A stretch of DNA of 50,888 nt. It comes from a virus. Its lineage: Duplodnaviria; Caudoviricetes. The notes beneath the pieces are model-generated. The model was not told the origin of the DNA. It saw nothing but the letters and a program-made list of their open reading frames with translations, and did no database searches. Shown piece after piece: positions 2,228-46,590 of the stretch (its first letter is position 1; each line of letters starts with the position of its first letter). Both the position numbers and the translations under genes were made by a program. The stretch is taken from the IMG/VR virus record IMGVR_UViG_3300022693_004335, positions 1 to 50,888 of that record; one strand, written 5' to 3'.

Positions 2228-2363
2228 ATTCTGTAAAAAATGTGGAGACAAATTAGGAATTGGAGGAGTAGATCCACCAGTGTTTTGCGAACATTGCAAA
2301 ATATATTACCCAAGCTCTTGGGAACGGTTCTGTTCGTGGCTTAGCAAGATATTTCGTAAATAA
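2220..2363 (+). CDS. 47-aa zinc-ribbon microprotein (not in ORF track)
   Basis: MAEFCKKCGDKLGIGGVDPPVFCEHCKIYYPSSWERFCSWLSKIFRK: two CxxC pairs, with the ATG overlapping the end of abiH. Confidence 0.55.
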   Translation: MAEFCKKCGDKLGIGGVDPPVFCEHCKIYYPSSWERFCSWLSKIFRK

Positions 2364-2405
2364 CTTATTTAGTATATAAATAGAATTATACTCTATATAG
2401 GTTAT

Positions 2406-3152
2406 TTAGAATAAAGTCGATTGGTTAGAGCCATCAAGCTCTGGATCTATCGCGGGCACCGCATTTAATATTTCAGGAGTATTGGTATCAACGCCTCGTT
2501 TGTAGATTGCATTGCTTACCGGATGATACTTCAATGCTTCATTAGTGAAACTCACATTGATTAACTCTTTAATCTGCTTTTCATTTAAACTAGAATCTAT
2601 CCAGTTCTCGGTAAACTGCTCATCTAGTATTAACGGCATTCGTTTTTTAGCGTTATGGATCTGGGCCATTATATCATTCGCTTCCATTGTCAAGATTGTA
2701 ACGGTGTACAGCTCTTCATCAATTTTATTAAAAAGCCCGGCAAAGTAGAATAGCTTTTGCTCCGGTAGGGTGATATAATAGGGTTGTTTCTTTTCAGTTT
2801 TGGTACCAGGCTTCACATACGTATGTGGCTCGAAAAAACCATCAGCTAAAATCAAGCAACGACCAGACTCCGCACTTTTCTTATACGTGTTACTTGTCCA
2901 GATATCTTCGCTTCTAGCATTATAAGTGTGATAAGGAAACTCTGAAGGAGCGCCTTGGTGAAAATCCGGTATCAGTTTCCAGTCAGCCGGCCAGATCCGT
3001 TGGGGATCATCCTGAGGAATTATATGCAATAACTTATCACCAAAAGCATTTATATGATAGTAAGGCTCGTAAACTTCCGGATAAACAAATTTGCGCTTTG
3101 AAGTTTTTACTATCTCTTCTTCTAACTTGGTTAAACTGGTTGCGTTGCACAT
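2406..3152 (-). CDS. SOS response-associated peptidase (SRAP/YedK/HMCES family)
   Basis: Catalytic Cys2 (MC start), YNARSE, CLILADGFFE and IHN...RMPLIL motifs; adjacent to umuDC. Confidence 0.92.
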   Translation of the reverse strand: MCNATSLTKLEEEIVKTSKRKFVYPEVYEPYYHINAFGDKLLHIIPQDDPQRIWPADWKLIPDFHQGAPSEFPYHTYNARSEDIWTSNTYKKSAESGRCLILADGFFEPHTYVKPGTKTEKKQPYYITLPEQKLFYFAGLFNKIDEELYTVTILTMEANDIMAQIHNAKKRMPLILDEQFTENWIDSSLNEKQIKELINVSFTNEALKYHPVSNAIYKRGVDTNTPEILNAVPAIDPELDGSNQSTLF

Positions 3153-3193
3153 AGAATTCTGATTTAAAAACTAATTTATTAATTTTATGTACT

Positions 3194-3451
3194 ATGGGCC
3201 GTACCCGCAAAGAACTTTATGATTTAGCTAACAACTTTTATCTGAATTCAACCATTCAATTGGTTGATAAGGATTTCACGTATTCATTGTATCGTATAGA
3301 ATATCAGGATAAACTTTATGAGTTATGCATAGCTAATCGCAATAACAATTATAATGGCCCCGCTCCTACATTTTATCTTAGAAATCAAAGTGAAAGTTTT
3401 GCTCGGAATCTTTGTTGGAAAAAATTAATTGAACCCACAATACAGAGATAG
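3194..3451 (+). CDS. Hypothetical protein
   Basis: 85-aa ATG ORF filling the gap between the SRAP gene and umuD. Confidence 0.5.
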   Translation: MGRTRKELYDLANNFYLNSTIQLVDKDFTYSLYRIEYQDKLYELCIANRNNNYNGPAPTFYLRNQSESFARNLCWKKLIEPTIQR

Positions 3452-3466
3452 GATTAATTACATAAT

Positions 3467-3483
3467 TTTGGACTTTTTCCAAA
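3467..3483. promoter_or_regulatory. Bacteroidota-type SOS box (GGA-N5-TCC)
   Basis: Palindrome TTTGGA-CTTTT-TCCAAA ending 16 nt upstream of the umuD ATG; matches the motif reported for Bacteroidota non-canonical LexA. Confidence 0.75.
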
Positions 3484-3499
3484 TTAAAGATTTCCTACA

Positions 3500-3919
3500 A
3501 TGTGTTTAGAATTAATAAAGCCTGCAACGGGGTACTCTATTACGATCCCATTTATTGACAGTTTATCTTGTGGCTTTCCTTCCCCTGCCGATGACCACTT
3601 AGATGAAGGAATAGATTTAAACTCCGCCTATATACGTAATAAGGATGCTACATTTTTTGGCCGCGTAAAAGGGGATTCCATGGAAGGTGCCGGTCTTTCT
3701 GACGGTGATCTTTTAATAATTGACAAAAGTCTTGAGCCTAGAGACGGAAAAATAGCTGTTTGTTTTATAGATGGGGAATTCACGGTTAAACGCATACGCA
3801 TAGAGAAAGATATCATCTGGCTAATTGCTGAGAACTCTAAATACAAGCCTTTAAAAGTTACCAAGGATAACGAATTTCTAATCTGGGGAGTAGTAACTAA
3901 CGTAATTAAGGACTTGTAG
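3500..3919 (+). CDS. umuD: DNA polymerase V accessory subunit UmuD (S24 peptidase)
   Basis: CGFPSPA.D cleavage site, RVKGDSM (Ser) and FTVKR (Lys) catalytic motifs. Confidence 0.95.
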
Positions 3920-3920
3920 A

Positions 3921-5180
3921 ATGTTTGCTCTTATCGATTGTAATAATTTCTACGCCTCTTGTGAACGCGTATTTAATCCTTCATTAAATGGCAAACCTGT
4001 TGTTGTCCTTTCTAATAATGATGGATGTGTAATTGCTAGATCGAACGAAGCGAAGGCTCTCGGTATTCCAATGGGTGCTCCTGCGTTTCAAATCAAGCAG
4101 CTTTTTAATAAACATAACATTCAGGTGTTTTCTTCAAACTATGCTCTTTACGGCGACATGAGTGCACGTGTAATGAACATACTCTCCAATTTCTCTCCAG
4201 AGCTTGAAGTATATTCTATTGATGAAATCTTTTTGAAGCTGGAGGGTTTTGAACTATACAACCTGACAGATTATGGTTGTAAAATGATTGATCTGGTTAA
4301 ACGTTCAACTGGTATTCCAATTAGTATAGGAATTGCTCCTACCAAATCTCTAGCTAAAGTGGCCAATAAGATTGCTAAGAAGTTTCCTGAGCGCACTAAA
4401 GGAACTTATGTTCTAGACACCTCAGAAAAAATTCAAAAGGGTTTAAGGTGGACGGAAATAGGTGATGTATGGGGAATTGGCAGGAGGTACGAAAAAAAAT
4501 TACAGAACATCCAGGTTATGAATGCTTGGCAATTCACACAGCTTCCAAACGAGTATGTAAAAAAAGAAATGAGCATTGTAGGTCTAAGATTGAAACGGGA
4601 TCTATCTGGGGAATCAACGCTTGATTTGGAAGAAGTTGCTAAAAAGAAAAATATTGCTGTTACCAGATCCTTTGAGAAAATGTACACTGACTTTGAAGAT
4701 CTACGTGAACGGGTTGCTACATACGCAAGTAAGGTGAGTTATAAGCTGCGTAAACAAAATAGTTGCTGCAAATTGGCTTATCTTTTTTTACATACGAATA
4801 GACACCGGGAAGATCTCCCACAATACAGTAACGGTATAAGTATTCAAATGCCGTATGAAACAAATTCATCTCTAGTTATTACTAAAACAGTAATGAGCGG
4901 ATTGAAGCGAATTTATAGAGAAGGTTATCACTATAAAAAAGCCGGCATAATTGTAATGGGATTAACCCCAGATACACAAAAACAATTAGTCCTATTTCAT
5001 AATGAAGATCCCCGGCATAAAATTTTGATGCAAACTATTGATCGGTTGAATAGAAATTGCTTCGACCAGGTGAAGTTTGGCGGGCAGGATCTGAAAAAAG
5101 TCTGGAAGATGCAACAAAATCATTTATCCAAACGATACAGCACGCGTCTTAATGAGATCATTGAGGTGAAGTGTAATTGA
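3921..5180 (+). CDS. umuC: Y-family DNA polymerase V subunit UmuC
   Basis: [32 protein letters not shown] and the C-terminal WKMQQ..LS.RYST motif. Confidence 0.95.
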
Positions 5181-20363: not shown

Positions 20364-21659
20364 TTATGCAGATTCTACAAGTTCAGCTTCAAACTTCGCT
20401 ACTCCTTCCTCAGAAAGACTATCGATTTTCTTAGCTAATGTTGCGTCTTGCTGTGATTCAGTTGCCGGAGCAGTTTCACCAGCAGCATTGATACCCGCCA
20501 CTACAGAAGCTTTGGTATAGTCAGTACCTTTGTAGGTGTAAACTGCATCGCCTTCTGTTTGCTCATCTTCAGCAGCAGTAGCTTCTTCTGAGTTGATGTA
20601 GAAAATAGACTCTACATTCTGAAGGATTGGAAATACAACACCTTCAGCTCCGGTAGCTTCACTTACAGGATCTGTAGTACCCCACTTTTTAACTAAGATA
20701 TAGTCATTAGCTTTAGAATATTGAACACCTTCAACTGGGAATTCTTCTTCCGCAAGAGTAGAATAAACAAGGTTACCTATATTGGTCCCGGTTGTAAATA
20801 CGACCATGTCTTTTGTCCATCCCTCAGTAACGATTTTCTTTCCGTTTTTCTGGTGGGTAAATGTTCGATCAATAACAATCAAATTCATTTTAGCCTTTTT
20901 AGAAAAAACAGACTTCAGATCATCTTCTTCTAAAGTTGGAATGTTTGGATTATCTCCTGAGAATTTGTTACCCCAAGCGAATTGAGCTTTGATCTGCTCA
21001 TTATCCAGAAGATTATTCATGGTTTCGTCACTCATCCAAATCGTATTTGGATATTCGCCTTTTGCTTTAGCCGCCTTCTTAATCCTAGCAATATCACTAA
21101 GAGGTTTAGAAGTAGGATCACTCCATTTAGCAATAACACCAAACTGATTACTTTCTGGAATATCATAACTTACACGAACAGCCGTTCCTGTGTTTTCTGT
21201 CTCTGGAACAAGTGCTACTCCTCCAGATAGACCCATCAGCATTGCTTGTTCTATTTTTTCTTTGATACCGAATATACTATTCTCGGAATCTTGAAAAACT
21301 TTACGAGCTAACTCGGTCTTTCTTCCTGTGTCTCTACGTAGAATACGAAGTGTATTCATTTCCTTTTCATTCAATAAGTACTTCATACCCATTTTAGGGA
21401 TTTCTCCAGAAGCACTTTTAATACGAGATCTTGATTTCACTGGTAAAGGAGAATCGAAGGAAACAATATCAGCTGTAATTCTGGTAAAATCACCACTAAT
21501 AGAGCTGTAAGTCATATCAGCACTATACTCAGGGGTAAGAAACTGCTCATGCAGATAATTGGGAGCATCCTTAGAACCGTTTACTTTCTCGTATTGAGCT
21601 AGTACAACTGATTCCATATACTCATCAATCAGATCTTTAAATATGGATTGTGTTGCCAT
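20364..21659 (-). CDS. Major capsid protein (lambda E-like, with C-terminal extension)
   Basis: ADIVSFDSPLP, GEIPKMG and KWSD...KPLSDI motifs; follows the scaffold and decoration genes. Confidence 0.85.
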   Translation of the reverse strand: MATQSIFKDLIDEYMESVVLAQYEKVNGSKDAPNYLHEQFLTPEYSADMTYSSISGDFTRITADIVSFDSPLPVKSRSRIKSASGEIPKMGMKYLLNEKEMNTLRILRRDTGRKTELARKVFQDSENSIFGIKEKIEQAMLMGLSGGVALVPETENTGTAVRVSYDIPESNQFGVIAKWSDPTSKPLSDIARIKKAAKAKGEYPNTIWMSDETMNNLLDNEQIKAQFAWGNKFSGDNPNIPTLEEDDLKSVFSKKAKMNLIVIDRTFTHQKNGKKIVTEGWTKDMVVFTTGTNIGNLVYSTLAEEEFPVEGVQYSKANDYILVKKWGTTDPVSEATGAEGVVFPILQNVESIFYINSEEATAAEDEQTEGDAVYTYKGTDYTKASVVAGINAAGETAPATESQQDATLAKKIDSLSEEGVAKFEAELVESA

Positions 21660-22049: not shown

Positions 22050-22682
22050 TTATCCTACGATTTTGGATATTTCCTCTTTCGATGGTTTTTTAGCCCCGCC
22101 GTTTCTAGGAACTGGTAATCGCTGAGTATGCCTTGGATTCGGATCAGTATCTTCGATTACAATTGTACCACCGTCTGCTTCGAATTTCTCCTTAACGGTT
22201 TCAAATTGCTCTTCAAAATCCTTTTCTAAGTCCAATTCACTGGCGTAACCAGGTAAAATGCCTTTTGATTTGAGGAACTTACGAGCTGCTTCTTTTTTCT
22301 GAGCCGCAGTTTGTTGTTGCTTCTCAGCTTTTTGAGCTTCCAGATCCTTTTCCATTTTGGTAAGCTTTGCAAGTAATGCTTTCATAGCAGGATCTTTCGT
22401 TTGGATTTCTTCCTCTTCCTCCTCTTCTTCCTCTTCCTCTTCGCCAAAGCCATACTTCTTTTTAAGTTTTGCTTCACGAGTATCAGCAGATTTTGCAAGT
22501 CTTTTGTCAAATTCGCTTTGCACACCTTTAATTTTAAGTGCTTCGTCTAGAGTAGTAGGTACATCGAGTCCTTCAAATTCCTCAATGGTTTCGGCTTCTA
22601 TGCCAAATTTTTTAAGCTCCTCGGCTGCTTCCTTATCTTGGGCCGCTAGTTTGAGTTTCTTAATAAATTCTTTTAATGTCAT
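22050..22682 (-). CDS. Capsid scaffolding protein
   Basis: Charged coiled coil with QSEFDKR motif and a poly-Glu tract; upstream of decoration and capsid genes. Confidence 0.7.
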   Translation of the reverse strand: MTLKEFIKKLKLAAQDKEAAEELKKFGIEAETIEEFEGLDVPTTLDEALKIKGVQSEFDKRLAKSADTREAKLKKKYGFGEEEEEEEEEEEEIQTKDPAMKALLAKLTKMEKDLEAQKAEKQQQTAAQKKEAARKFLKSKGILPGYASELDLEKDFEEQFETVKEKFEADGGTIVIEDTDPNPRHTQRLPVPRNGGAKKPSKEEISKIVG

Positions 22683-22796
22683 CTTACGATCGTTTTGATT
22701 AATACGTTAGATCGTAAATATATTTAGGTGAGATGTAGTATTGCTGTGTATTGGTCCTTTGTGTGCGTAGGTGGTATGCTTTTAGGTTTGGAGTAT

Positions 22797-22824
22797 AAAA
22801 AAAAAGAGCCCGGTGAAGGCTCTT
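22797..22824 (-). terminator. Intrinsic terminator closing the accessory operon
   Basis: Minus strand AAGAGCC-TTCACCG-GGCTCTT followed by a T run. Confidence 0.8.
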
Positions 22825-22852
22825 ATACGGTTGTATAAAATCAATGTTTAGG

Positions 22853-23212
22853 CTATGGTGAGCCATTTATAAAAGATATGTAATTATTCAAATCTTCCAT
22901 AAATAGTTTGAGTTCTCGTTCGTATTCTTCTCTTGTAATTTGCTCACCCATATCACAATAGTAAGTGTAGCTATTTGTATCTAAAAAACCTTTAAAAAAA
23001 TCATTCCCAACTTCAAAATGGTGTTCCCTTGATGTTTTTTGAAAAGTAAAAGCCTGACAAGTTTCTTCATCAAAATATTCGTGTTTAATAATTTTAGCAT
23101 AAGCCCACCAAACACCATTTCTTGGGTGGTAAGAGTTTTTAGCCTTGAAGTATAAAGACTCATTTAATTCTAAATCTTTTACTTTTTTTCTCATTTCTAA
23201 ATTTTCATCCAT
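22853..23212 (-). CDS. Hypothetical protein
   Basis: ATG at 23212 (MDENLE). The longer GTG start at 23311 would read through a repeat site. Confidence 0.6.
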   Translation of the reverse strand: MDENLEMRKKVKDLELNESLYFKAKNSYHPRNGVWWAYAKIIKHEYFDEETCQAFTFQKTSREHHFEVGNDFFKGFLDTNSYTYYCDMGEQITREEYERELKLFMEDLNNYISFINGSP

Positions 23213-23280
23213 AATAAAATATGTTATTTGCGCTCGTACATCACGCACGCCTTTTTTCTTTAAAAACAGTTCCCTTCGGT

Positions 23281-23558
23281 GGGTAACACTGTATAAACAA
23301 AATACACTCACTTCAAACTGAATGCTATAAAATCGCCTCTCATATCAGTTGTAATTCCAATAAATCGCTTGCATTTGCATTTCATTCTCATATAGTGTTT
23401 ATCTTGTTTCATCCATTTTCCTTCAATCTCATCAAATGGTATTTGTCGCTCACATTCTGGACACTCGGCTTTACTTTCTGCTAGTGTTAAAATTCCGTTT
23501 GGTATAATTACTGTTTTGCTCATGTTCGTTTTACTTTTGTTATACTCGTAAATTACCC
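23281..23558 (+). repeat. attC-like site 1 with a gene in its loop
   Basis: GGGTAAC-ACT-GTATAAACAAAA ... TTTTGTTATAC-TCGTAA-ATTACCC. Confidence 0.6.
23308..23523 (-). CDS. Small zinc-ribbon protein inside attC-like site 1
   Basis: CPEC...CKC motifs, 71 aa. Confidence 0.7.
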   Translation of the reverse strand: MSKTVIIPNGILTLAESKAECPECERQIPFDEIEGKWMKQDKHYMRMKCKCKRFIGITTDMRGDFIAFSLK

Positions 23559-23752
23559 TGCGGGGCGTGTTGCTCCGCTTTTAAAATTTTTAAAGCTGAT
23601 TTAAACTTCTCCACTCGCTTAGAGTGATATTCACTTGTCGATAAAAGAACTTTTATATCCACAGTTTTGTCCTTGTGAGAATCCTGAGGATAGCTCGCTA
23701 AATGATGTGATATATGTATTTGGGATTGTACCCATTCTATGATTTCTTCCAT
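23540..23752 (-). CDS. Hypothetical cassette protein
   Basis: 70-aa ATG ORF whose stop falls in a repeat arm. Confidence 0.55.
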   Translation of the reverse strand: MEEIIEWVQSQIHISHHLASYPQDSHKDKTVDIKVLLSTSEYHSKRVEKFKSALKILKAEQHAPQGNLRV

Positions 23753-23867
23753 ATTTGTAAAATTTTAAAGACTCCCGCACCCCTTAATTTGCCCTAACGG
23801 TCTGTGTGTGCAGTGCCATTGGTTAATAATTGTATTTTAGTTAATTATAGCTTAGCAGGGTAACTAT

Positions 23868-23956
23868 CCCTAACACCGCATATCTGCAAGACGGCACAGC
23901 AATCTGCCCCTCTGTAGGGCTGCGCCCTCCAGGCAGATATACACAGACCGTTATAT
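23868..23956 (+). repeat. attC-like site 2 (compact, 89 bp)
   Basis: CCCTAAC-ACC-GCATATCTGC ... GCAGATATAC-ACAGACC-GTTATAT with an inner CACAGC/GCTGCG stem. Confidence 0.65.
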
Positions 23957-23960
23957 ACAA

Positions 23961-24051
23961 GTGGCGAATAGGTATCGAACCTATCTACGGCAGTCCTTCA
24001 ATAATTAGACTTCCTGTTTTTTATCACTGTACCTACTGTGAGTATCGCCAC
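23961..24051 (-). ncRNA. tRNA-like element without a canonical anticodon arm
   Basis: Acceptor GTGGCGA/TCGCCAC, D arm TCAC-AGTAGGTACA-GTGA, T arm ATAGG-TTCGATA-CCTAT. Confidence 0.65.
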
Positions 24052-24056
24052 CAGAT

Positions 24057-24291
24057 ATATAACTATGTATAACACAAATACACTCACTTACAATAGGTCT
24101 TTTTAAACCAATCTCTTGCTTTTTCTAGTCGTGCTAAATCTTGTCTAGCCATTTTTAATTCTTCTTTTCCTCCAACAATACCTCCTGCTATTGCAGAATC
24201 TTGATGAAAAACGCACTCTTCTAATATTTCTAAAACTAATTTTTTGCTCATAATTCGTTCATTTTACTTGTGTTATACAGTTCCGTTATCT
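24057..24291 (+). repeat. attC-like site 3 with a gene in its loop
   Basis: ATATAAC-TAT-GTATAACACAA ... TTGTGTTATAC-AGTTCC-GTTATCT; perfect 11-bp inner inverted repeat. Confidence 0.7.
24084..24251 (-). CDS. 55-aa microprotein inside attC-like site 3 (not in ORF track)
   Basis: MSKKLVLEILEECVFHQDSAIAGGIVGGKEELKMARQDLARLEKARDWFKKTYCK; start and stop contexts match those of 23308-23523. Confidence 0.65.
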   Translation of the reverse strand: MSKKLVLEILEECVFHQDSAIAGGIVGGKEELKMARQDLARLEKARDWFKKTYCK

Positions 24292-24292
24292 A

Positions 24293-24398
24293 CAGTTTCA
24301 CAACTCCAACGCGCGCTTCTTTAATTCCAATCTCACGTGATCTACATTGTGAATAAAGCCACTACCGTGGGCTATGCCTTCGCTCTGTTGTGAAACTG
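24293..24398. ncRNA. Candidate structured RNA cassette
   Basis: Perfect 12-bp closing stem CAGTTTCACAAC/GTTGTGAAACTG with internal hairpins; no ATG-initiated ORF fills it. Confidence 0.4.
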
Positions 24399-24413
24399 CA
24401 AAGCCCTTCGGGT

Positions 24414-24723
24414 AGATAACTATGTATATAATTAATGCTTAACCTTTTGCTTCTCAATCAAGGCTTGTGTTTTAAGTCGCCTACTACCAACGGATGACAT
24501 ACAGTCAAAACATTGTTTATCGCAAGTTCCTAAAACTTCTGGATTAAGAATTTCATCCTTTTCTCTTTCAGTCATATTTGTTTTTTCAAGAGCGTGGAAA
24601 GTTTCATTCCATTCGTCTATTGAAAATTCCTCGTCGCCACACATCCGTTGGCAGTAAAAATTATTGTTATTCATAATTATTTGTTTTTGAATTTCGCACT
24701 AATCATATACTTATCCGTTAGCG
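24414..24723 (+). repeat. attC-like site 4 with a gene in its loop
   Basis: AGATAAC-TAT-GTATATAATTAATGC ... GCACTAATCATATAC-TTATCC-GTTAGCG. Confidence 0.7.
24432..24674 (-). CDS. Cys-rich hypothetical protein inside attC-like site 4
   Basis: 80 aa with FYC...C and CDKQCFDC motifs. Confidence 0.7.
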   Translation of the reverse strand: MNNNNFYCQRMCGDEEFSIDEWNETFHALEKTNMTEREKDEILNPEVLGTCDKQCFDCMSSVGSRRLKTQALIEKQKVKH

Positions 24724-24927
24724 CGCATTAAATTCTGCTACTAACTTTGATGCTTTTTCTCTATTGAATTTACTTGTGCAATTTGACCAACAAATATTTT
24801 TAGTACATCCTTCAATCCATCCCCATTCTGTCCCGTCAGTGTTCGGGTGTCTGTTTGTCTTTAAACTCAATTTGTCAGCTATTGGCACTATTTCTTGTCC
24901 TGATACGTCTTTGCCTATACTTTCCAT
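24718..24927 (-). CDS. Hypothetical cassette protein
   Basis: ATG at 24927 (MESIGK); the stop codon TAA is the complement of the GTTA core. Confidence 0.65.
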   Translation of the reverse strand: MESIGKDVSGQEIVPIADKLSLKTNRHPNTDGTEWGWIEGCTKNICWSNCTSKFNREKASKLVAEFNAR

Positions 24928-24938
24928 AAAACAACGCA

Positions 24939-25069
24939 CGCTAACATTGTATATAAATCAGTGGCGTTACCGTGTCTTTTTGAACCACCTTTGCTGTTAA
25001 TTTAGTTTAAGCGTGTTTGCAATCTTACAGCTATTAATCGCCACCGCTTCATATACTTATCCGTTCAGA
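24939..25069 (+). repeat. attC-like site 5 (131 bp, non-coding loop)
   Basis: CGCTAAC-ATT-GTATATAAATCAGTGGCG ... CGCCACCGCTTCATATAC-TTATCC-GTTCAGA. Confidence 0.7.
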
Positions 25070-25101
25070 ATAATTGACCTGCGTTTCGAAACACCAAGCT
25101 T

Positions 25102-25305
25102 TCAAACCCTTTCAACATCTCTAATTTCCTCCAGTTCATTACCGGCTACCGTGTAACTCCCGATAGCTTCATATTTCTTTTCTCCGTTGATATATCCGTC
25201 GATGAAATATTCGGTGCTTTGTCCGTGTCTTTCGCATTGCTCTACTTTTTCTGGATGGCCCTGTTCGATAAGTTCATCGATTAGGATTTTAGTTGTTGTG
25301 TTCAT
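25102..25305 (-). CDS. Hypothetical protein
   Basis: 67 aa, ATGA-coupled to the upstream gene. Confidence 0.65.
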   Translation of the reverse strand: MNTTTKILIDELIEQGHPEKVEQCERHGQSTEYFIDGYINGEKKYEAIGSYTVAGNELEEIRDVERV

Positions 25306-25733
25306 TGAGTTATTTCATTTAATTTTTTGTATTTCCATTCAGTCATAAGAAAATCCGCGTACCATAGAAAAACAGTAAGTAGTAAGCTAGCTTGTTTGAT
25401 TGAATCAACGTTATGAGGCGCTAATAATGCGGATCCTTCTAGCACTCCTAAGCTGTAATTTGTTATATCCAAACCACAAGCATTACCCGGGACTGAAATA
25501 TGTTCCAAACCCCAAACACCCATTCTAACTCTAATTTGACCTTCATAAAAGGTCTTATCATAACCGTGATTCATTAACCAAATTGGTGAGAGATTGGCAA
25601 CCGCGGTATTAGCTTCTTCTTGAGATATATTAGCTTCTTTGACCAGATTTTTAAATTCTGGAAATAATTCAATATTAAATCCAGAGGCTGACAATCCGGG
25701 TGAAGGGTTGTATTTTGATATGTGATAAAACAT
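25302..25733 (-). CDS. Hypothetical protein
   Basis: 143 aa in a tightly packed operon. Confidence 0.7.
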   Translation of the reverse strand: MFYHISKYNPSPGLSASGFNIELFPEFKNLVKEANISQEEANTAVANLSPIWLMNHGYDKTFYEGQIRVRMGVWGLEHISVPGNACGLDITNYSLGVLEGSALLAPHNVDSIKQASLLLTVFLWYADFLMTEWKYKKLNEITQ

Positions 25734-25738
25734 AATTC

Positions 25739-25993
25739 CTATTTAAAAAGTTCTGTTTGATTTTCTATTTTTTGCACTGGTCTCCCGTGCTTAGGTGTTG
25801 ATTTTCCTAATTTGTAATACCCTTTCTTAATACGGACCAAAAGCTGATTCTTAACCATTCTTGAAAGCGTGTGTCCTACGTGCTTTTCAGTATTGTAGTA
25901 ATACCGGATCTGCCCGCGTTCAATGATTTCCTTTTTTGAGAGGATTGTTTCCTTGTCTGGGAAGGTTTCGAGTATTTCAGCTTGGCGGTTCAT
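25739..25993 (-). CDS. Small winged-helix protein
   Basis: TLSRMVKNQLLVRIKKGYYKL recognition helix plus wing. Confidence 0.6.
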   Translation of the reverse strand: MNRQAEILETFPDKETILSKKEIIERGQIRYYYNTEKHVGHTLSRMVKNQLLVRIKKGYYKLGKSTPKHGRPVQKIENQTELFK

Positions 25994-25994
25994 T

Positions 25995-26315
25995 TTATTG
26001 AAGTCTTAAGGCTCTAAGCCAATTCAATATTCTATTGTTTTCCCCTAATGAATAACCCCAATTTCCGGTTATCAAAAAATTTACTGGAATGCCAACAATC
26101 ATAACTACCATAACTAGTAATGCGAATGGCATGGTCAGCCTTAATAATGGATTTATACTTTTCTTTTCCTCGGTATAAAAATCCATTCCAAGATCAATAA
26201 ACCTATCAGCTAGTTCTTCTGAATCAATGTTTTTCAATTCAGGAAATACTTTTTTGAATCTTGGAATATTCCCATAGCCATGTGTCCAAGTTCTTTTTAA
26301 CTTTCTATATATCAT
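25995..26315 (-). CDS. Hypothetical membrane protein
   Basis: One hydrophobic segment, LTMPFALLVMVVMIVGIPVNFLI. Confidence 0.65.
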   Translation of the reverse strand: MIYRKLKRTWTHGYGNIPRFKKVFPELKNIDSEELADRFIDLGMDFYTEEKKSINPLLRLTMPFALLVMVVMIVGIPVNFLITGNWGYSLGENNRILNWLRALRLQ

Positions 26316-26360
26316 ATCTCTATTTTATTTTACAATTAACACAAGAGCCTTGCGCTCTAG

Positions 26361-26522
26361 TTACTTTATTCCTTTAAAATTCAAATTCCAGCCCCTTCTC
26401 CATTCTTTGAATTTTACTGATCCGTCTTTACAAGGGTTTTCCGGCTTTAGCTTCCAAGATGATTGGCAGTATTCGTTCCAAGCCTTTTGACCTTCTTGAA
26501 AAGCTTTCTCTTGAGCTGTCAT
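26361..26522 (-). CDS. 53-aa Rmf/CrpP-fold-like microprotein (not in ORF track)
   Basis: MTAQEKAFQEGQKAWNEYCQSSWKLKPENPCKDGSVKFKEWRRGWNLNFKGIK; first ORF after a TATCTTTG promoter. Confidence 0.6.
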   Translation of the reverse strand: MTAQEKAFQEGQKAWNEYCQSSWKLKPENPCKDGSVKFKEWRRGWNLNFKGIK

Positions 26523-26545
26523 AGTTTTCGATTGTTTTGATGTTT

Positions 26546-26625
26546 CAAAGATAGCAGTTAGTTTTCATTTTTTGAAAACTTTTATAGTTTATTTTACTTT
26601 TATTGAAAATACATTTGTACTTTTG
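26546..26625. promoter_or_regulatory. Divergent Bacteroidota sigma-A-type promoters of the accessory island
   Basis: TATCTTTG on minus (26546-26553) and TACTTTTG on plus (26618-26625), both matching TAnnTTTG. Confidence 0.65.
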
Positions 26626-26629
26626 AAAT

Positions 26630-27595
26630 ATGAAAAATGAATTGTTAGAGGGGTATGATAAGTACATAGTTGCCTTTTCGGGTGGTAAGGATAGTATCGC
26701 CTGTTTTTTGTCATTACTCGAGTCTGGAGTGCCTAAAAACAAAATTGAACTTTGGCACAGTTTGATTGATGGGCCGGGGGAAACATTTATGGATTGGCCA
26801 GTAACCGAAGACTATTGCAGAAAATTTGCAAATGCTTTTGGTGTTCCTATTTATTTCAGTTGGAAAGAAGGTGGGTTTAAAGGTGAAATGCTCAGAAACA
26901 ATCAACCAACCAGACCCACTTTTTTTGAAACGCCCGAAGGTTTATTGAGTTCAGGTGGTAAAGGTCCTAATGGCACCCGATTAAAATTTCCGCAGGTGAG
27001 CGCAGATTTACGAGTAAGATGGTGTTCAGCTTATTTAAAGATTGATGTTTGCTCTTCAGCTATTCGAAACCAGTCAAGATTCAACGGGATTAAAACCGCT
27101 TTGATATCTGGTGAACGTGCACAGGAAAGCACCGCTCGGGCAAACTATAAAGTATTTGAAATAGATCGTGCAGATAATAGAAACGGTAAAAACAAGCGCC
27201 ACGTTGATAGAATAAGATTAGTGCACGGCTTATCAGAGGCTGAAGTATGGGAAATTATTAAGCGTTACCGTGTTGTTGTTCATCCTTGCTATTATATGGG
27301 ATGGAGCCGGTGCAGTTGTCTTTTTTGCATTTTTGGCAACGATGATCAGTTTGCTAGTGCTCAAATGGTTAGTCCTTTGAAGGCTAAAGAACTGGTAACG
27401 CACGAGAATTCATTCGGAGTAACCTTAAAGCGGGATAAGCCTATTTCTATTGTAATGAATAACGGGAAGGTTTATGCAGCAATAACGCCTGAGCTTTTAG
27501 AAATGTCGCGATCAACTGAATACACTGGAAAAATCTTCACTACAAACTGGAAGCTTCCTGCCGGGGCTTTTGGTGAAAGTTGCGGTCCTAATTAA
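26630..27595 (+). CDS. PAPS-reductase-family (PP-loop, DndC-like) protein
   Basis: VAFSGGKDS PP-loop, RWCSAYLK, GERAQES..RA and RCSCLFC motifs. Confidence 0.85.
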   Translation: MKNELLEGYDKYIVAFSGGKDSIACFLSLLESGVPKNKIELWHSLIDGPGETFMDWPVTEDYCRKFANAFGVPIYFSWKEGGFKGEMLRNNQPTRPTFFETPEGLLSSGGKGPNGTRLKFPQVSADLRVRWCSAYLKIDVCSSAIRNQSRFNGIKTALISGERAQESTARANYKVFEIDRADNRNGKNKRHVDRIRLVHGLSEAEVWEIIKRYRVVVHPCYYMGWSRCSCLFCIFGNDDQFASAQMVSPLKAKELVTHENSFGVTLKRDKPISIVMNNGKVYAAITPELLEMSRSTEYTGKIFTTNWKLPAGAFGESCGPN

Positions 27596-27609
27596 ATAAA
27601 ATAGATACT

Positions 27610-27915
27610 ATGTCAAATAATTTAACTTTGAACGTTGAAACAAATGTTCTTGATAAGTTGATTTTAAAAATTAAAGAAGTCTTAAAGGCTAAAAAACTTA
27701 AGCAAAAAGATCTTGCTGCACATCTTAATTACGATGCTTCATACATGAGCCGTGTTTTAAAAGGTGAAATAACTATGAGTATTAAAACTCTTCAAGAGAT
27801 AGCAGACTTTTTAAAGGTTCCAGTACATCAGCTTATAGAAGTTCCGGATGGTTATATAAACGTTTACGACAATGATAAAAACTGGAAGGGAATAATCAAA
27901 AAGGACTTTATATGA
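27610..27915 (+). CDS. XRE-family HTH regulator
   Basis: LKQKDLAAHLNYDASYMSRVLKG...TLQEIADFLKV. Confidence 0.88.
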   Translation: MSNNLTLNVETNVLDKLILKIKEVLKAKKLKQKDLAAHLNYDASYMSRVLKGEITMSIKTLQEIADFLKVPVHQLIEVPDGYINVYDNDKNWKGIIKKDFI

Positions 27916-28049
27916 GTTCAGTAGCAAAAGAAACGGCAGATAAATATCAGGACTTTTTCAATTTTATGAATCAGGAACACGGGTTAATTTTGACAATTTC
28001 CGAAATGAATGAGATTTTAGAAGAAGCCCAAAAGCTTTTAAATCAATAG
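27912..28049 (+). CDS. 45-aa hypothetical protein (not in ORF track)
   Basis: MSSVAKETADKYQDFFNFMNQEHGLILTISEMNEILEEAQKLLNQ; ATGA-coupled to the XRE gene. Confidence 0.6.
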   Translation: MSSVAKETADKYQDFFNFMNQEHGLILTISEMNEILEEAQKLLNQ

Positions 28050-28057
28050 AACAAAAA

Positions 28058-28192
28058 GAGCAAGTGGCGGAATTGGTAGACGCTATCTACTCCGAGGAAT
28101 GATAAGTTCGCGCGATAGTTCTAAAGAAGTAAATCCTCGCGGTGCGTTTTGCACAGTAGGGGATTGTGCAGGTTCGAACCCTGCCTTGCTCA
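28058..28192 (+). ncRNA. tRNA-Leu-like element with expanded anticodon region (135 nt)
   Basis: Acceptor GAGCAAG/CTTGCTC-A, D arm GCG-GAATTGGTAGA-CGC, T arm GCAGG-TTCGAAC-CCTGC. Confidence 0.75.
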
Positions 28193-28206
28193 CTAAAACA
28201 TATCTT

Positions 28207-28449
28207 ATGAAACACCTAGCATCAATAAGAGCAAACGTAATCTACACCAAAGAAAAGGGCGAGTATAAGAAGATTAATGAGATTGTTCTTCTCTCCGATG
28301 GTCCAGAATATAAGTACTCAAACGAGGGTGAGATAGTGCGCCAGAGATCACTCCAAGAACACCGATTTTTGGTTGACAATGCTGGAATAGATAATTTGAT
28401 TGCTGTTCTTGAGAAAATAAAAGAAGTTGAAAACGAAGATTTAGAGTGA
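28207..28449 (+). CDS. Hypothetical protein
   Basis: Likely start MKHLAS at 28207; the longer start would lie inside the tRNA-like element. Confidence 0.65.
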   Translation: MKHLASIRANVIYTKEKGEYKKINEIVLLSDGPEYKYSNEGEIVRQRSLQEHRFLVDNAGIDNLIAVLEKIKEVENEDLE

Positions 28450-28721
28450 TGGAAACAATCTACAAATACCCATTAGAAATAACATACTATCAAGGAGTAG
28501 AAATGCCAAAAGGCTCCGAAATACTTTCTGCTAAATGTCAGAACAATTCTTTAGTACTATATGCAGGTGTTAGCGAAAATGAAGTAAATGAACTTCGTAC
28601 TATAGAAGTTATAGGAACTGGTAATCCTGTCTATTCAAATTCAAAAACGAAGCGTAGATTTATAGATACTGTGATAATGCCTAAAGGTTTAGTTTGGCAC
28701 GTGTTTGAGCGGATTTCTTAA
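28446..28721 (+). CDS. Hypothetical phage protein
   Basis: IYKYPL...MPKGSEILS...GTGNP...LVWHVFE pattern of a small phage protein family. Confidence 0.7.
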   Translation: MMETIYKYPLEITYYQGVEMPKGSEILSAKCQNNSLVLYAGVSENEVNELRTIEVIGTGNPVYSNSKTKRRFIDTVIMPKGLVWHVFERIS

Positions 28722-28726
28722 AATAC

Positions 28727-28754
28727 AACCAACCCTCACTGATGCGGGTTGGTT
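28727..28754. terminator. Hairpin between convergent operons
   Basis: AACCAACCC / GGGTTGGTT inverted repeat. Confidence 0.55.
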
Positions 28755-28932
28755 AAACTAAACTCTTCCTATACTTCACCAAATCCTTAGTAGTCACACT
28801 CACAGAAACCCCCAGTGCTTGAGATATTTCAATAATCGCTCGTTTAGAACTTGATCCAGCAGCTTTTTTGATTTCAAAGAACATTCCAGACTGCTTTACC
28901 CGTTTTTCAAGTAATTTCTTATTCCTGTTCAT
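28753..28932 (-). CDS. 59-aa HTH-like protein (not in ORF track)
   Basis: MNRNKKLLEKR...AIIEISQALGVSVSVTTKDLVKY. Confidence 0.55.
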   Translation of the reverse strand: MNRNKKLLEKRVKQSGMFFEIKKAAGSSSKRAIIEISQALGVSVSVTTKDLVKYRKSLV

Positions 28933-36574: not shown

Positions 36575-36730
36575 TTTAAACTTTTTAAAAACCCAGAGGC
36601 TTGATTTTTGAATTACTCAAGCCTTATCTGGGTTTATACACGCTTATTGACTATTGGGCGTTTCCGCAGAATAATCGTCATCGTATTTTACCCTTCTCCT
36701 GTGTTCGTCAACTCAGAGGTTGGATTTCCG

Positions 36731-36804
36731 TAGCGGGAGCTGGATTCGAACCAGCGGCCTCCGGGTTATGGGCCCGGCGAGCTGACCATCTGCTCTATCC
36801 CACG
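36731..36804 (-). tRNA. tRNA-Met (CAT), initiator type
   Basis: Full cloverleaf with a 1:72 mismatch, anticodon stem CCGGG/CCCGG with three G-C pairs, loop CC-CAT-AA, T loop TTCGAAT; no encoded CCA. Confidence 0.93.
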
Positions 36805-37415: not shown

Positions 37416-39134
37416 TTAAGCGGCTTCCGAAATAGTTCCCTTATATTTTTTCACTGCTTTATTATGCGCTTCAAATAGTGCTTTAGCGGTTTTCACTTCA
37501 ACACTATTACCGATGAATTTCTTTTGATCAGTTTGATTTCCTACAAGTTGATAGTCTGCCGGAAAGCCTTGTATTTGTAATAGTTCTTTAACCAGTAGCA
37601 TTCGCATTTTTATATCTGTGATACCGTAAGCAGCCATAAACTTTTTGATCTTCACCATCGTTGGAGTATCGCAATCATAGACAGGAATTGCAAATCCTTT
37701 ACCTTGTTCACAGATAACTAAACCAAGTGGCTTTTTATCTTGCCGGGCAATGATCACCGGGCAAGGTTTTTCAACTGAGTTACCAGGATTCTTGAATTGT
37801 GGATTGAATAAGAAATGCTCAGCTTCAACCAAGTTATGCTTGTCGTTATTTACGATGGTTGCTGCAGGACCGGTCACAGGGCGAATAAAACCACCACCAG
37901 AATAATTGAGCATTAAGTAATTCACTTTAGCAAACTTTGGATTTTGTGTAATCGTACCAAGTGGTTGATCAACCTTAGAAGGTTTGCTGTTTCCATATTG
38001 CTGATCAATAAATGTGGTTTCAACCTTGCTGAATCGATCTTTGGTTGTTACTGTTGGGCACGGTTCATCTGTGCTGTGCGCGTGACCGTTGCCATAATAC
38101 GATTGCAAGAATGAAGCATTTACCATTCCCAGTCTGCTTTGAGCGGCAACTGTAGGACAAGGATCTTCAATTGAAGGCGGCACGTGCTTTCCGTTTTTTG
38201 ATACTGAATTGTATTTTAGAATAAAATCACAGTTAACAATTGCCTGACCATCTTTGCACTTCACAGTACCGGCGGGACCTTCAACAGAAATCACTTTTCC
38301 CATTGGTCTTCCGGAATAGTATTTCTTGATAAAGCTTTCGTCACCATTAGCAACAAACTTCACGAGACCAGCGTAAATGCGTTTGAGTGTATTTTCAACA
38401 AGCGGTTTTTTACGGTTGAATATCGATTTACCTTCCGTATCAAAGTCAAGCACTTCTTTTACCGGCTTCCACTTTTTAAGAGGGTTATCGAACAAGCCTT
38501 CAGACTTTAATGGATTTTTAGTGTGCGTTTGTTCTGGCCACGCAATAGGTAGCTTACCTTTTGCAAACTGCGCAAAGAATCTATTTCGGGCAGTGTAGGC
38601 TCCAAAGTCAGCACTATTCAATTCACGCCAATCGTATCGATATCCATAAGCGCGAATAGAATCAATCCATCTTAAGTAATCCTGACCGCGCTTGCGTGAT
38701 ACCGGTTTCCCTTTTGCATCCAGCGGTCCCCAACTCATAAACTCAACCACGTTTTCAATCATCAAATAGTCAGGCTTTATCGCTTTGAGATACATATGCA
38801 AATGATCTGCAAGCGTTCTACTATCTGCCTCACGTGGTAAGCCTCCTTTTGCTTTACTGAAGTTCGTACACTCGAGACTTGCCCAAATGGTAATAATGCA
38901 ATCAGGATAAAGCTTTCTTAAGGCATCAACACGAAGCTTTAAAAACCAAACAACCTCCGGGTTTCTAATATCCTCAATAAAATGCTTGGCCTGTGGATGG
39001 TTTAAACGGTGGCTTTCTATCGCTTTTGTATCGTGATTAACGCAAGCGATTACCTTGGCGCTTCCTTTGGATAAGTGAACACCTTCGGAAGTGCCACCTG
39101 CTCCACAGAATAAGTCAATTACAAATTCTTTCAT
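37416..39134 (-). CDS. DNA (cytosine-5)-methyltransferase
   Basis: Motif I DLFCGAGG, motif IV SLECTNFS, motif VI ENV, motif VIII TARNRFF, motifs IX-X QGFP and IGNSV. Confidence 0.92.
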   Translation of the reverse strand: MKEFVIDLFCGAGGTSEGVHLSKGSAKVIACVNHDTKAIESHRLNHPQAKHFIEDIRNPEVVWFLKLRVDALRKLYPDCIITIWASLECTNFSKAKGGLPREADSRTLADHLHMYLKAIKPDYLMIENVVEFMSWGPLDAKGKPVSRKRGQDYLRWIDSIRAYGYRYDWRELNSADFGAYTARNRFFAQFAKGKLPIAWPEQTHTKNPLKSEGLFDNPLKKWKPVKEVLDFDTEGKSIFNRKKPLVENTLKRIYAGLVKFVANGDESFIKKYYSGRPMGKVISVEGPAGTVKCKDGQAIVNCDFILKYNSVSKNGKHVPPSIEDPCPTVAAQSRLGMVNASFLQSYYGNGHAHSTDEPCPTVTTKDRFSKVETTFIDQQYGNSKPSKVDQPLGTITQNPKFAKVNYLMLNYSGGGFIRPVTGPAATIVNNDKHNLVEAEHFLFNPQFKNPGNSVEKPCPVIIARQDKKPLGLVICEQGKGFAIPVYDCDTPTMVKIKKFMAAYGITDIKMRMLLVKELLQIQGFPADYQLVGNQTDQKKFIGNSVEVKTAKALFEAHNKAVKKYKGTISEAA

Positions 39135-39591
39135 TTTTCTAATACTTCTTTTAATTCGATTGATTTTGCCTCAAGAATCTGAATAATGCCGTCGATGCTT
39201 TCGGATCTCTTAATGTCTCGAGTTAGGCTGTTCTTCAGCATAAATAGCGTGGGATCTCCAATCCTTAATTGAACTCGTTCCTTGATGGTTTCAAGATTTT
39301 GGCGCTCGTTTTTATACAGGTGAATAGCATTCGATATTTTTTTCGATGAATTCATCACAGTTGCATGATCGAACGACCTATACTTCACCGTTGAATATCC
39401 AATTTCTGCGAAACTCAAACCTGTGAACACATTTGCTAAGTAGTGATAGGTTTGACGGGGCTTTACTAGATGATAATTTCTTTTATCTGAAAAACTTCCT
39501 CGGGCTCTAGATGATAAAAGCTCAGGACTTCCTCTTGTATAACATCGAGTATTGCTCTGTTTTCTACGGATATAATTCGCTTTGCTTTCAT
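39131..39591 (-). pseudogene. DnaA domain IV-like DNA-binding protein, frameshifted at a T5 run
   Basis: The ATG at 39591 stops at 39466. Adding one T at 39490-39494 joins it to SDKRNYHLVKPRQ...LSFAEIG...DHATVMNS. Confidence 0.65.
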
Positions 39592-45422: not shown

Positions 45423-45893
45423 TTAATAAGTTGCTTTTAGTTCTTTATCTGGTAGCGGGATCTCGTATTGAAACATTTCATAAGCAAGATCCCGGGATGC
45501 TTTATGATATTGCTCCTGGTCCCAAGTGTCGTTTGAAGTGGTGGACTTCTGTTTTACTATGGGCCTTCCGTTAATTGGATTGAAAATAAGTTCGCCGGTT
45601 TCCTCGTTTACCTTTTCTTCAAAGCTTAGATTCTGTTTAAGAAACTCGTGCACTTGGTCTTTAGTCAAAACTTCCCCCCATTCAGTTCTTAAAAGGTTTT
45701 TCCAGTGCTCGACAATCACACCGAAATAGTACGCGTTCTGATCATTGCTTCGTTTTTTATAGAAGCGTTTAATCGTGAGTGTTACCTCTTTACCCTCATA
45801 TTGAGCAATAGCATCAACAATAACATCACGGTTGCGTGTAAACTTGCCGTTGTGTATTTCTGATCGTATGTCAATTTTTTTAGGCAATGGCAT
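45423..45893 (-). CDS. NinB/Orf-like recombination accessory protein
   Basis: RS.DQNAYY, VHEFLK, KSTT and IPLP motifs. Confidence 0.6.
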   Translation of the reverse strand: MPLPKKIDIRSEIHNGKFTRNRDVIVDAIAQYEGKEVTLTIKRFYKKRSNDQNAYYFGVIVEHWKNLLRTEWGEVLTKDQVHEFLKQNLSFEEKVNEETGELIFNPINGRPIVKQKSTTSNDTWDQEQYHKASRDLAYEMFQYEIPLPDKELKATY

Positions 45894-46590
45894 CTAACTC
45901 CTTAATTTTATCATTACGATATCTAATACCTTGACGAAGTCTGCGCTTCAAATCTTCGATCGCCTTTTCGTCACGTTCGATCTTAACAATATGCATACGG
46001 TGCTCCGGCTTTTTGAATCTTGGGTCATAGGAAACCCAGTACCAGAAATCAGCACCAGTCACATACATACTCCCCACAACCTGCCAGAAGTAATTTGAGC
46101 AATGCTTCTCAAGATCTGCTGCATTCTTTACGTTTGTCAAATAGAAGAAATGGGTTTTGCTGTTGGGTGCCTTTCCTTCATATCCTCCATTGGTTCCTAT
46201 TCTTCCGTCTGGCGTGCAGCCGACATCATCGCCTAACTCAACAAACTCCTGATCGTTTCCGTATTTCTCAACAGTAAGGCCAGTGACTTCCATAAAATAT
46301 TCTACTGCTTCTACCTCATGAGCATTTCCGTGCTCCATAGCTGCATTACTGAAATAATCACTTTCGGTTGTTAATGCTTCCACCGCTTTTTCCATCGCAT
46401 AGGTTTCAGCTCCTTTAGGAAAATCAGCTTTAGATCTATAACCCATTAACCGATGAAACTCGGAAGCTGTAAATCGACCTCTTCTTTTTTGAAGCCATTG
46501 CTGGGTTTTACTTTCAAGAGAATCTAAGGCCTCGAAATCGAGACCTTTTGATTCTGTTGCTATCTGCTCTGCAATCTCTAGAAAATCCAT
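45880..46590 (-). CDS. YqaJ / lambda-exonuclease-family nuclease
   Basis: WLQKRRGRFTASE, AMEHG...E..A, GCTPDG, EGKAP, and YFWQV motifs. Confidence 0.9.
   Translation of the reverse strand: MDFLEIAEQIATESKGLDFEALDSLESKTQQWLQKRRGRFTASEFHRLMGYRSKADFPKGAETYAMEKAVEALTTESDYFSNAAMEHGNAHEVEAVEYFMEVTGLTVEKYGNDQEFVELGDDVGCTPDGRIGTNGGYEGKAPNSKTHFFYLTNVKNAADLEKHCSNYFWQVVGSMYVTGADFWYWVSYDPRFKKPEHRMHIVKIERDEKAIEDLKRRLRQGIRYRNDKIKELDAIA

Follow-up and report, generated by a model that had tools for sequence, protein, structure and literature searches.

A recombinase-less array in a provirus that may belong to an integron-like gene-cassette system of marine Flavobacteriia phages

The window analysed here is the complete 50,888-nucleotide (nt) IMG/VR record IMGVR_UViG_3300022693_004335, assigned to the provirus class with a rated completeness of 97%. 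Its minus strand, the gene-bearing one, carries from 25065 to 23284 an array in which ten half-sites of two kinds alternate without exception. Half-site P consists of YAAC, 5–7 nt and GTATA (the L box), and half-site Q of TATAC (the L′ box), 2–3 nt and GTTR. Given this strict alternation, two kinds of module must alternate as well. The half-sites delimit nine modules, five with small open reading frames (ORFs) and four non-coding (nc1–nc4). In A-modules, which run from P to the Q that follows, the GTATA/TATAC boxes close the unit; this kind comprises nc1, ORFs of 80 and 55 amino acids (aa), nc4 and a 71-aa ORF. B-modules, from Q to the P that follows, have module-specific closing arms directly beside GTT and AAC and comprise the 70/73-aa ORF at 24718, nc2, nc3 and the 70-aa ORF at 23540. 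AAC/GTT cores and a second, inner box are found in all five sites, one of which is broken, and the loops of the sites span 20 to 400 nt. The original prediction, made from the sequence alone, had described a cassette-type array inside a phage, and this description stands.

All modules lie on the minus strand. The array opens with P(a) (GAAC-GGATAA-GTATATGA, 25049-25065), which is homologous to positions 7188-7204 of L010, a related provirus described below. The hairpin that P(a) forms with Q(b) (TATATAC-AAT-GTTA, 24942-24956) has as its loop the non-coding A-module nc1 (24957-25048), which folds around an inner stem GGTGGCG/CGCCAC. The following B-module (24717-24945) is bounded by GTTAGCG...CGCTAAC and holds ORF 24718-24930 (70 aa from ATG), which matches no Pfam or PHROG family. 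P(c) (TAAC-GGATAA-GTATATGA, 24703-24721) contains a 17-nt exact copy of P(a); inside its hairpin with Q(d) (TATATAC-ATA-GTTA, 24417-24431) lies an 80-aa cysteine-rich ORF of no family (24432-24674). The non-coding B-module nc2 (24285-24420), bounded by GTTATCTAC...GTAGATAAC, contains a 12-bp inner stem. P(e) (TAAC-GGAAC-TGTATAAC, 24274-24290) begins an A-module (24060-24279) made up of a 5′ frame, GTATAACACAAGTAAAATGAAC, that runs to ATG, a 55-aa ORF (24084-24251), a 3′ frame, AGTGAGTGTATTTGTGTTATACA, and Q(f) (24060-24074). Next comes the non-coding B-module nc3 (23950-24063), bounded by GTTATATA...TATATAAC, whose fold resembles a cloverleaf and includes a canonical-looking T-arm, GGTTCGATACC. 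The A-module nc4 (23795-23953) combines P(g) (TAAC-GGTCTGTGT...), an inner 75-nt hairpin ending in GCGGT-GTTAGGG, and a 13-bp perfect partner, ACACAGACCGTTA (23795-23807). The last B-module (23540-23798) has the arm GTTAGGGCAAATT (plus-strand 23786-23798), a conserved leader and a 70-aa ORF (23540-23752), and overlaps the broken half-site P(h) (TTTAC-GA-GTATAAC, 23541-23555). The final A-module (23284-23523) has frames like those of 24060-24279, a 71-aa zinc-ribbon-like ORF (23308-23523) and Q(i) (TATAC-AGT-GTTA, 23284-23298). Thus the 55-aa and 71-aa modules have in common a 5′ frame up to ATG and a 3′ frame from the stop codon. The cargo consists of small proteins without assigned function, none with a Pfam or PHROG family.

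The repeats quoted in the original prediction are all present, ATAACTATGTATA at 24059-24071 and 24416-24428 and TCATATACTTATCCGTT at 24703-24719 and 25049-25065. Its bounding pairs are exact inverted repeats: GTTAGCG/CGCTAAC (24717-24945), GTTATCTAC/GTAGATAAC (24285-24420), GTTATATA/TATATAAC (23950-24063) and TTACCCTGC/GCAGGGTAA (23553-23863). The pair ATTACCCTGC/GCAGGGTAAC is a real repeat but probably not a functional one, the true partner of arm 23786-23798 having been deleted. The evidence for this deletion comes from metagenomes, in which contigs of four of 18 listed runs, none of them an RNA run, were aligned to the array. A 3,278-nt contig of run X3 carries the block 23550-23952 (nc4 plus the 70-aa gene, from P to P) with nine differences and one gap between flanks unlike those of the window; similarity breaks at the AAC of P(g) on one side and at P(h) on the other. 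At the place of the window's AATTT-ACGA-GTATAAC, the X3 contig has kept an intact arm, AATTTGCCCTAAC-TCGCAAA-GTATAAGG. P(h) in the window is therefore a deletion scar, to which the ATT that had been listed as a variant of this site belongs.

Other modules also recur in foreign surroundings. A contig of run X9 contains a homologue of nc1 (~87% identity) whose arms beyond AAC and GTT differ. Run X9 also has a relative of the 67-aa gene and, directly after it, a P site. In another X9 contig both flanks of the 70-aa ORF are kept while 157 other letters replace its 159-nt body. A pattern search with the 5′ frame of modules 24060-24279 and 23284-23523 returned seven viral contigs, two of them (L036 and L037) near-identical; AAC lies 5–6 nt upstream in all seven, and in six the 3′ frame follows after a different small ORF. 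A nucleotide search with 22800-25600 against 50,697 GenBank phage records gave no match.

Could such sites be chance palindromes in AT-rich intergenic DNA, with no function in common? TAAC-N2-7-GTATA occurs six times in the window, four of them inside the array, against 1.0 ± 1.2 expected (maximum 5), and TATAC-N2-7-GTTA five times, three of them inside, against 1.45 ± 1.1 (maximum 4); expectations are from 40 first-order Markov simulations, and a fourth TATAC copy in the array, at 25052, ends in GTTC and was left out of the count. The bare geometry (AAC, 5–7 nt, any 6-bp stem, 2–3 nt, GTT) is at chance level, with 25 instances on both strands of the window against 19.0 ± 4.8 in 30 simulations. 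It is therefore the shared GTATA/TATAC box, the strictly alternating half-sites and the existence of homologues elsewhere that make the sites significant. Enrichment and clustering of the motif, strict alternation, the recurrence of homologous sites and frames in many unrelated contigs, and module boundaries that fall at sites in other contexts contradict a chance origin, to which we assign a nearly negligible probability.

The array is the promoter-distal part of a variable 6-kb insert (22784-28760, minus strand), delimited by blastn comparison with relatives, that is flanked by the scaffold gene (22050-22682) and a conserved gene of 59 aa (28753-28932). Relatives were found with the major capsid protein, a 431-aa ORF (20364-21659) recognised by its match to annotated capsid genes. 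Its closest counterparts in isolated phages are those of Cellulophaga phages (35% identity), from which we infer that the host of the provirus is a member of Flavobacteriia. The capsid search yielded 12 related viral loci, of which five were compared (L005, L006, L009, L010 and L012) and seven, short or distant, were left out. The insert region is missing or replaced in the four close relatives. In L006 and L009 the flanking genes are almost adjacent, with only about 50–80 nt between them, and L005, whose flanks are 92% identical in nucleotides, has a different 1.9 kb at this hot spot, filled by a single AT-rich 407-aa gene on the opposite strand (L005:6985-8208). L010 has about 7 kb of other content, made up of small genes and spacers with structure. 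None of these four relatives has the exact GTATA motif in its variable region; L010 has GCATAT/ATATGC in its place. Its array repeats the architecture of the window, with covarying boxes AAC-GGATTA-GCATAT...ATATGC-GGT-GTT around one gene and perfect module-specific arms of 16 and 15 bp that abut GTT/AAC around two others. The more distant L012 contains such sites over ~4.5 kb; their boxes are GTGTA/TACAC, GTACA/TGTAC and GCATA/TATGC, and the spacing of 6–7 nt against 2–3 nt is kept. Homologues of nc4 in both relatives (L010:7544-7707 and L012:3258-3430) show compensating stem changes; in that of L010 the closing stem differs yet still pairs. The pattern AACGGATWAGYATATGA matched 19 viral loci, which was judged near chance for the information content of the pattern, and only L042, L010's own contig, was used.

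The L010 array ends in a gene for a 266-aa tyrosine recombinase (PF00589, E = 2.5e-37, plus a SAM-like N-domain). By arithmetic from the contig range the gene lies ~20 kb from either end of the L010 provirus, and therefore is not placed like a lysogeny integrase. The same arrangement is found at ten recombinase loci, in viral contigs (eight loci, one of them in L010's own contig) and in the Polaribacter phages Freya and Leef. YAAC, 3–7 nt and TATA precede the recombinase ATG by 45–62 nt at all ten (nine distinct), and the gene reads in the cargo direction, downstream of the array and at its end. The arrays end at this proximal YAAC site, and upstream of it lie cassette-like units, for instance GTTAGGCGTT...AACGCCTAAC, with imperfect hairpins of ~60–190 nt between them. 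In the pairs L018/L019 and L022/L024, homology starts at the proximal AAC and stops at, or at most ~40 nt from, the end of the recombinase gene. The tyrosine recombinase of phage origin that had been proposed to drive the array thus adjoins array ends in relatives of the window (10/10 recombinase loci). In the whole 50,888-nt record, by contrast, no match was found to PF00589 (cut-off E ≤ 1), PF00239 or PF00665 (tyrosine recombinase, serine recombinase and rve transposase), so that not only IntI, whose absence nearby had been noted, but an integrase of any kind is missing.

Evidence that such arrays change by whole modules comes from ten isolates of Polaribacter phage Freya from one host, whose genomes measure 43,978 to 48,920 nt. 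Seven were read across the record origin, and Freya_3, 4 and 7, which have the lengths of Freya_2 and Freya_6, were left out. All length differences lie directly upstream of the recombinase. Freya_1, 2, 5 and 9 have arrays that, relative to Freya_10, break off at four different AAC sites, and each break is joined to the same proximal ACCCCTATAAC. An internal block bounded by two AAC sites is missing from Freya_8, and in Freya_6 a different cassette, of 442 nt, occupies the interval from one AAC site to another. The seven junctions in these six isolates (1158/6101, 2000/6101, 2902/6101, 5793/6101, 2000/2903, 2902/new and new/6101) all lie directly after AAC, within which the exact phosphate is not resolvable, and the variants differ by whole P-to-P blocks. 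The left and right parents of the junctions share just AAC and a loosely similar T-rich run; recombination by short homology would not place all seven on one trinucleotide. The Freya site is of the window type, AAC-GTTTA-GTATAT...ATATAC-CGT-GTT around an 85-aa ORF, and the phages also carry 61-nt mini-modules GTTGTAAAC...GTTTACAAC. Together with the X3 contig, the Freya junctions bear out the expectation that relatives gain and lose units exactly at AAC/GTT. The paper describing the Freya phages takes their integrase as a sign of temperate potential, and its main text contains neither 'integron' nor 'cassette' (PMC8776804).

We consider it fairly probable (about 0.58) that the array in the window is a recombinase-less member of a site-specific gene-cassette system in marine Flavobacteriia phages, integron-like in its working but not an integron. 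P, probably as part of the bulged P:Q hairpin that the sense strand forms, would be recognised by the recombinase and cut at AAC. Strand exchange with another P or with the recombinase-proximal site would then insert, delete or reshuffle A+B pairs, much as the integron integrase does at attC/attI and XerCD at pdif sites. Nothing in cis can drive the array in this provirus, which may be a relic, as the one site already broken suggests, or may be mobilised in trans by the recombinase of a co-infecting phage or by a host Xer enzyme.

Folding of one strand is implied by the mismatches that the helices tolerate. In the helices of 12 arrays, single non-Watson-Crick positions on the sense strand are G.T in 27 cases, A.C in nine (p = 0.004) and other in 29, against 45 G.T, 32 A.C (p = 0.17) and 164 others in helices outside arrays; this excess of G.T argues that one strand, the cargo-sense strand, has been selected to fold. 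As DNA, nc1 reaches −14.6 kcal/mol (z −1.83) on the minus strand and −8.7 (z 0.0) on the plus strand. nc2 folds with z −3.76 as RNA and −4.30 as DNA, and the RNA folds of the non-coding modules have z-scores of −2.4 to −3.8. Integron recombination sites act as single-stranded DNA (PMC8946536). Sense-strand folding fits single-stranded DNA recombination sites or transcript structure alike and does not decide between them.

The main rival explanation, which we regard as rather unlikely, holds that P:Q pairing and the 5′/3′ frames act in the transcript, in processing, stability or translation control of each small gene, and that these conserved elements also provide short patches of homology through which the phage's own recombination functions shuffle modules by homologous, not site-specific, recombination. 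It accommodates the sense-strand G.T bias (27 against 9) and the better folding of nc1 on the sense strand, as well as frames that reach ATG and begin at the stop codon around different ORFs; the window encodes a YqaJ-type exonuclease (45880-46590), and most array-bearing records lack a tyrosine recombinase. It does not readily explain why the seven Freya junctions, instead of being spread, fall within AAC, the right-hand edge of loosely similar ~20-nt cassette ends, or why a recombinase with an upstream AAC site constantly adjoins array ends in several phage lineages. No T-run follows any of the P/Q hairpins, which are therefore not intrinsic terminators (the sole strong terminator in the region, 22824-22804, follows the 113-aa gene), and sigma-70-like promoters are not enriched (6 against 9.8 ± 3.6) in a scan that does not cover Bacteroidota promoters. 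A comparable case may be the PeSL (promoter(early) stem-loop) cassettes of T4-type phages, which Arbiol et al. reportedly described in 2010 as promoter plus stem-loop repeats moved by homologous recombination with no recombinase. Those too are said to place small novel ORFs in a hyperplastic phage region, between conserved stem-loop flanks that allow modular shuffling. In that reported mode of movement they differ from the present arrays, where junctions fall on one trinucleotide and a tyrosine recombinase stands beside the arrays in relatives.

The likeness to integrons was the core of the original prediction, and much of it is real. Like an integron or a CALIN (cluster of attC sites lacking an integron integrase), the window has tandem small cassettes and imperfect two-box palindromes with AAC/GTT cores, each cassette start is complementary to its own AAC-side box, and no integrase is present. 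In the relatives, crossovers fall at AAC/GTT and new blocks adjoin the recombinase-proximal site; a folded single strand is implied as well. Membership is another matter. Among curated families the L010 recombinase is closest to XerA, XerC and XerD, all below their cut-offs, and against the integron-integrase model TIGR02249 it reaches 129.7 bits, with a cut-off of 265. The closest solved structure is archaeal XerA (1.4e-33), and the alignment to XerA (4a8e) is continuous, whereas chain residues 218-265 of Vibrio IntI4 (2a3v), ~48 residues before box II, have no counterpart in the query. IntI is defined by a specific additional domain around patch III (PMC9668308). Judged by sequence, then, the recombinases of the relatives (266–287 aa) are XerA-like and lack the IntI-specific domain, so that the system is not an integron by membership.

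The sites agree with the integron form in part, through their cores and inner box. Whereas the reference form of attC is R″-L″...L′-R′ with RYYYAAC and GTTRRRY, the array has asymmetric spacers (6 and 3 nt; overall 5–7 nt on the AAC side, 2–3 nt on the GTT side), and genes lie inside hairpins too, three of the five enclosing whole ORFs. Because all crossovers seen are at P, the 5′ arm of the sense strand, that strand is the counterpart of the 'bottom' strand of integrons, and the cargo runs antisense to integron convention, as predicted: it lies on the strand with the crossover AAC. The XerA-like recombinase of the relatives lies downstream, in the cargo direction.

These differences weigh against a true integron fragment, which would be a CALIN taken up from a bacterial integron, with a bacterial IntI acting on it. 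AAC/GTT cores with a two-box palindrome speak for such a fragment, as does published work on phage CALINs. Qi et al. (2023, PMC9892861) reported CALINs in 17 phages. Of six phage attC sites that they tested, five were recombined by IntI1 at G|TT, including one of two from Polaribacter phage P12002L. That phage has the hairpin architecture described here: its methyltransferase genes are separated by hairpins, for instance TAAC-GGACGA-GTATATACG...CGTATATAC-ATT-GTTACC, which may include the sites tested by Qi et al., and it has no annotated integrase. On the other side, the window and its relatives contain no IntI, the cargo lies on the crossover-AAC strand with ORFs inside hairpins, the architecture is common to phages of one host group with a recombinase of their own, and no Rfam match was obtained (in 22600-25400, Rfam 15 gave chance rows only at E ≤ 10). 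We therefore regard a captured integron fragment as very improbable. The same publication qualifies the claim that the system was undescribed, since phage CALINs, among them those of a Polaribacter phage with these hairpins, have been in print since 2023; in the literature we found nothing that links such phage arrays to a Xer-like recombinase or describes the Freya cassette series.

Xer enzymes of the host suggest a further alternative, a dif-module-like array run by XerC/D-type enzymes as in Acinetobacter plasmids, for which a phage recombinase would be dispensable. The dif modules of Acinetobacter Rep_3 plasmids are described as alternating in kind between inverse sites, as including some without an ORF, and as being lost in pairs (Ambrose, Xiao and Hall 2026, PMC13141974). 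The window matches this description in strict alternation between inversely oriented sites and in modules without an ORF; Freya matches it in P-to-P losses, where only pairs, between directly oriented sites, disappear; and the relatives match it in having a Xer-family enzyme. Arrays without a phage recombinase are common. The array nevertheless contains no dif-like consensus and no 28-bp XerC-spacer-XerD site (11-bp arm, 6-bp spacer, 11-bp arm), and its spacers are 6 nt in P against 3 nt in Q, so that P and Q are not the two orientations of a single double-stranded site. The stems, which have an asymmetric bulge, covary and the loops are conserved, which points to folding and not to double-stranded recognition. 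The carriers, moreover, are phages and not plasmids, and relatives have a dedicated single phage recombinase with its own proximal site. Control by host XerC/D thus appears improbable to us, if somewhat less so than an integron origin.

Several observations weigh against a recombinase-less member of a phage cassette system. The Freya evidence comes from another phage family than that of the window, and the link between the two consists of the site architecture and the L010 recombinase (33% identity to Freya's), with no window gene involved. Nothing shows activity of the array in this provirus. One site, P(h), is broken, and the contigs of run X1, which give the best DNA match (eight short pieces, 100% identical), show no joints. 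A tyrosine recombinase is absent from the window and from eight of nine other records searched, namely six with arrays or frames (L012, L032, L033, L034, L036 and L038) and two array-less capsid relatives. One of these, L036, is rated 100% complete and has array or frames without a tyrosine recombinase; the ninth record, L006, has one, far from the hot spot. The bare geometry of the sites is not enriched window-wide, and three of the five AAC-to-GTT intervals measure 221–296 nt between cores and enclose whole ORFs. Sites of type attC are not known to reach this length. Finally, frames conserved to the start codon and from the stop codon, together with the sense-strand G.T bias, would fit a role in RNA equally well.

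Some of the non-coding modules have features of their own. nc3 (23950-24063) and nc1 (24957-25048), both on the minus strand, have a common outer stem GGTGGCG...CGCCAC, and elements of a similar TGGCG type are present in L010 and an X9 contig. nc3 folds into acceptor-like and T-arm-like stems, with a 10-nt loop at the anticodon position. As tRNAs the two were rejected: ARAGORN calls only 36730-36804, and RF00005 gave no row in 22600-25400 at E ≤ 10. Derivation from a tRNA, or mimicry of one, is conceivable for both. A composite common to 23795-23953 of the window, L010:7544-7720 and L012:3258-3440 consists of a P site followed by a ~75–85-nt hairpin ending in GTTAGG; a second GTTAGG, 65–80 nt on, is preceded by a perfect complement of the P spacer, which makes two alternative pairings possible for P. 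Between modules in L032-L038, L034 and P12002L (L063:29960-30985 and 39085-39270) lie mini-hairpins whose stems vary and covary, around a loop, CGTTTTAATG, that is conserved.

Elsewhere in the provirus, the minus strand encodes the large and small terminases, an SPP1-type portal and a C5 methylase. In the other half of the insert (26630-28721) the genes run on the plus strand and encode a PAPS-reductase-like protein (phrog_424), a Cro/C1-type helix-turn-helix protein and a DUF7352 protein. Within the insert, too, lies an Rfam tRNA match (28058-28192, plus strand; 36.1 bits, E 5e-4) that spans 135 nt for a 71-position model, which implies an insertion of ~60 nt; it has no ARAGORN call and overlaps the 5′ end of ORF 28099-28449. 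The 113-aa gene and its terminator (22819-23251) recur at 98% identity, with unlike flanks, in a 1,000-nt root-metagenome contig (X2), where the boundaries of the block are not at P/Q sites. An AbiH-like gene lies at the left end of the window (974-5180) with genes for an SRAP peptidase and a Y-family polymerase of the UmuC type; this end may be flanking host DNA, or else cargo of the provirus for defence or the SOS response. That a provirus rated 97% complete should lack tyrosine and serine recombinases and an rve transposase bears on its mode of integration.

More broadly, and only tentatively, marine Flavobacteriia phages may carry an integron analogue of their own: a small XerA-like recombinase that lacks the IntI domain, a proximal site YAAC|N3-7-TATA, and bulged hairpins AAC-N6-L...L′-N3-GTT formed by the cargo-sense strand, with genes between hairpins and in their loops. 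Recombinase-less arrays such as that of the window would then be offshoots of CALIN type that co-infecting phages exchange. The current view of integrons is of bacterial, lately also archaeal, devices defined by IntI; if the proposed system is real, with its simpler Xer-type enzyme, cassette capture at hairpin sites arose or spread beyond IntI. It would explain the fast turnover of hyperplastic regions in marine phages, as in Freya, whose genomes range from 44.0 to 48.9 kb with the difference at one site. Dozens of small ORFs without assigned function would stand out as cargo that is under selection and can be exchanged, with likely roles in host takeover or anti-defence. Isolated phages and hosts make direct tests of the system possible, and the ten Freya isolates of one bloom would already constitute a snapshot of cassette turnover on ecological time scales.

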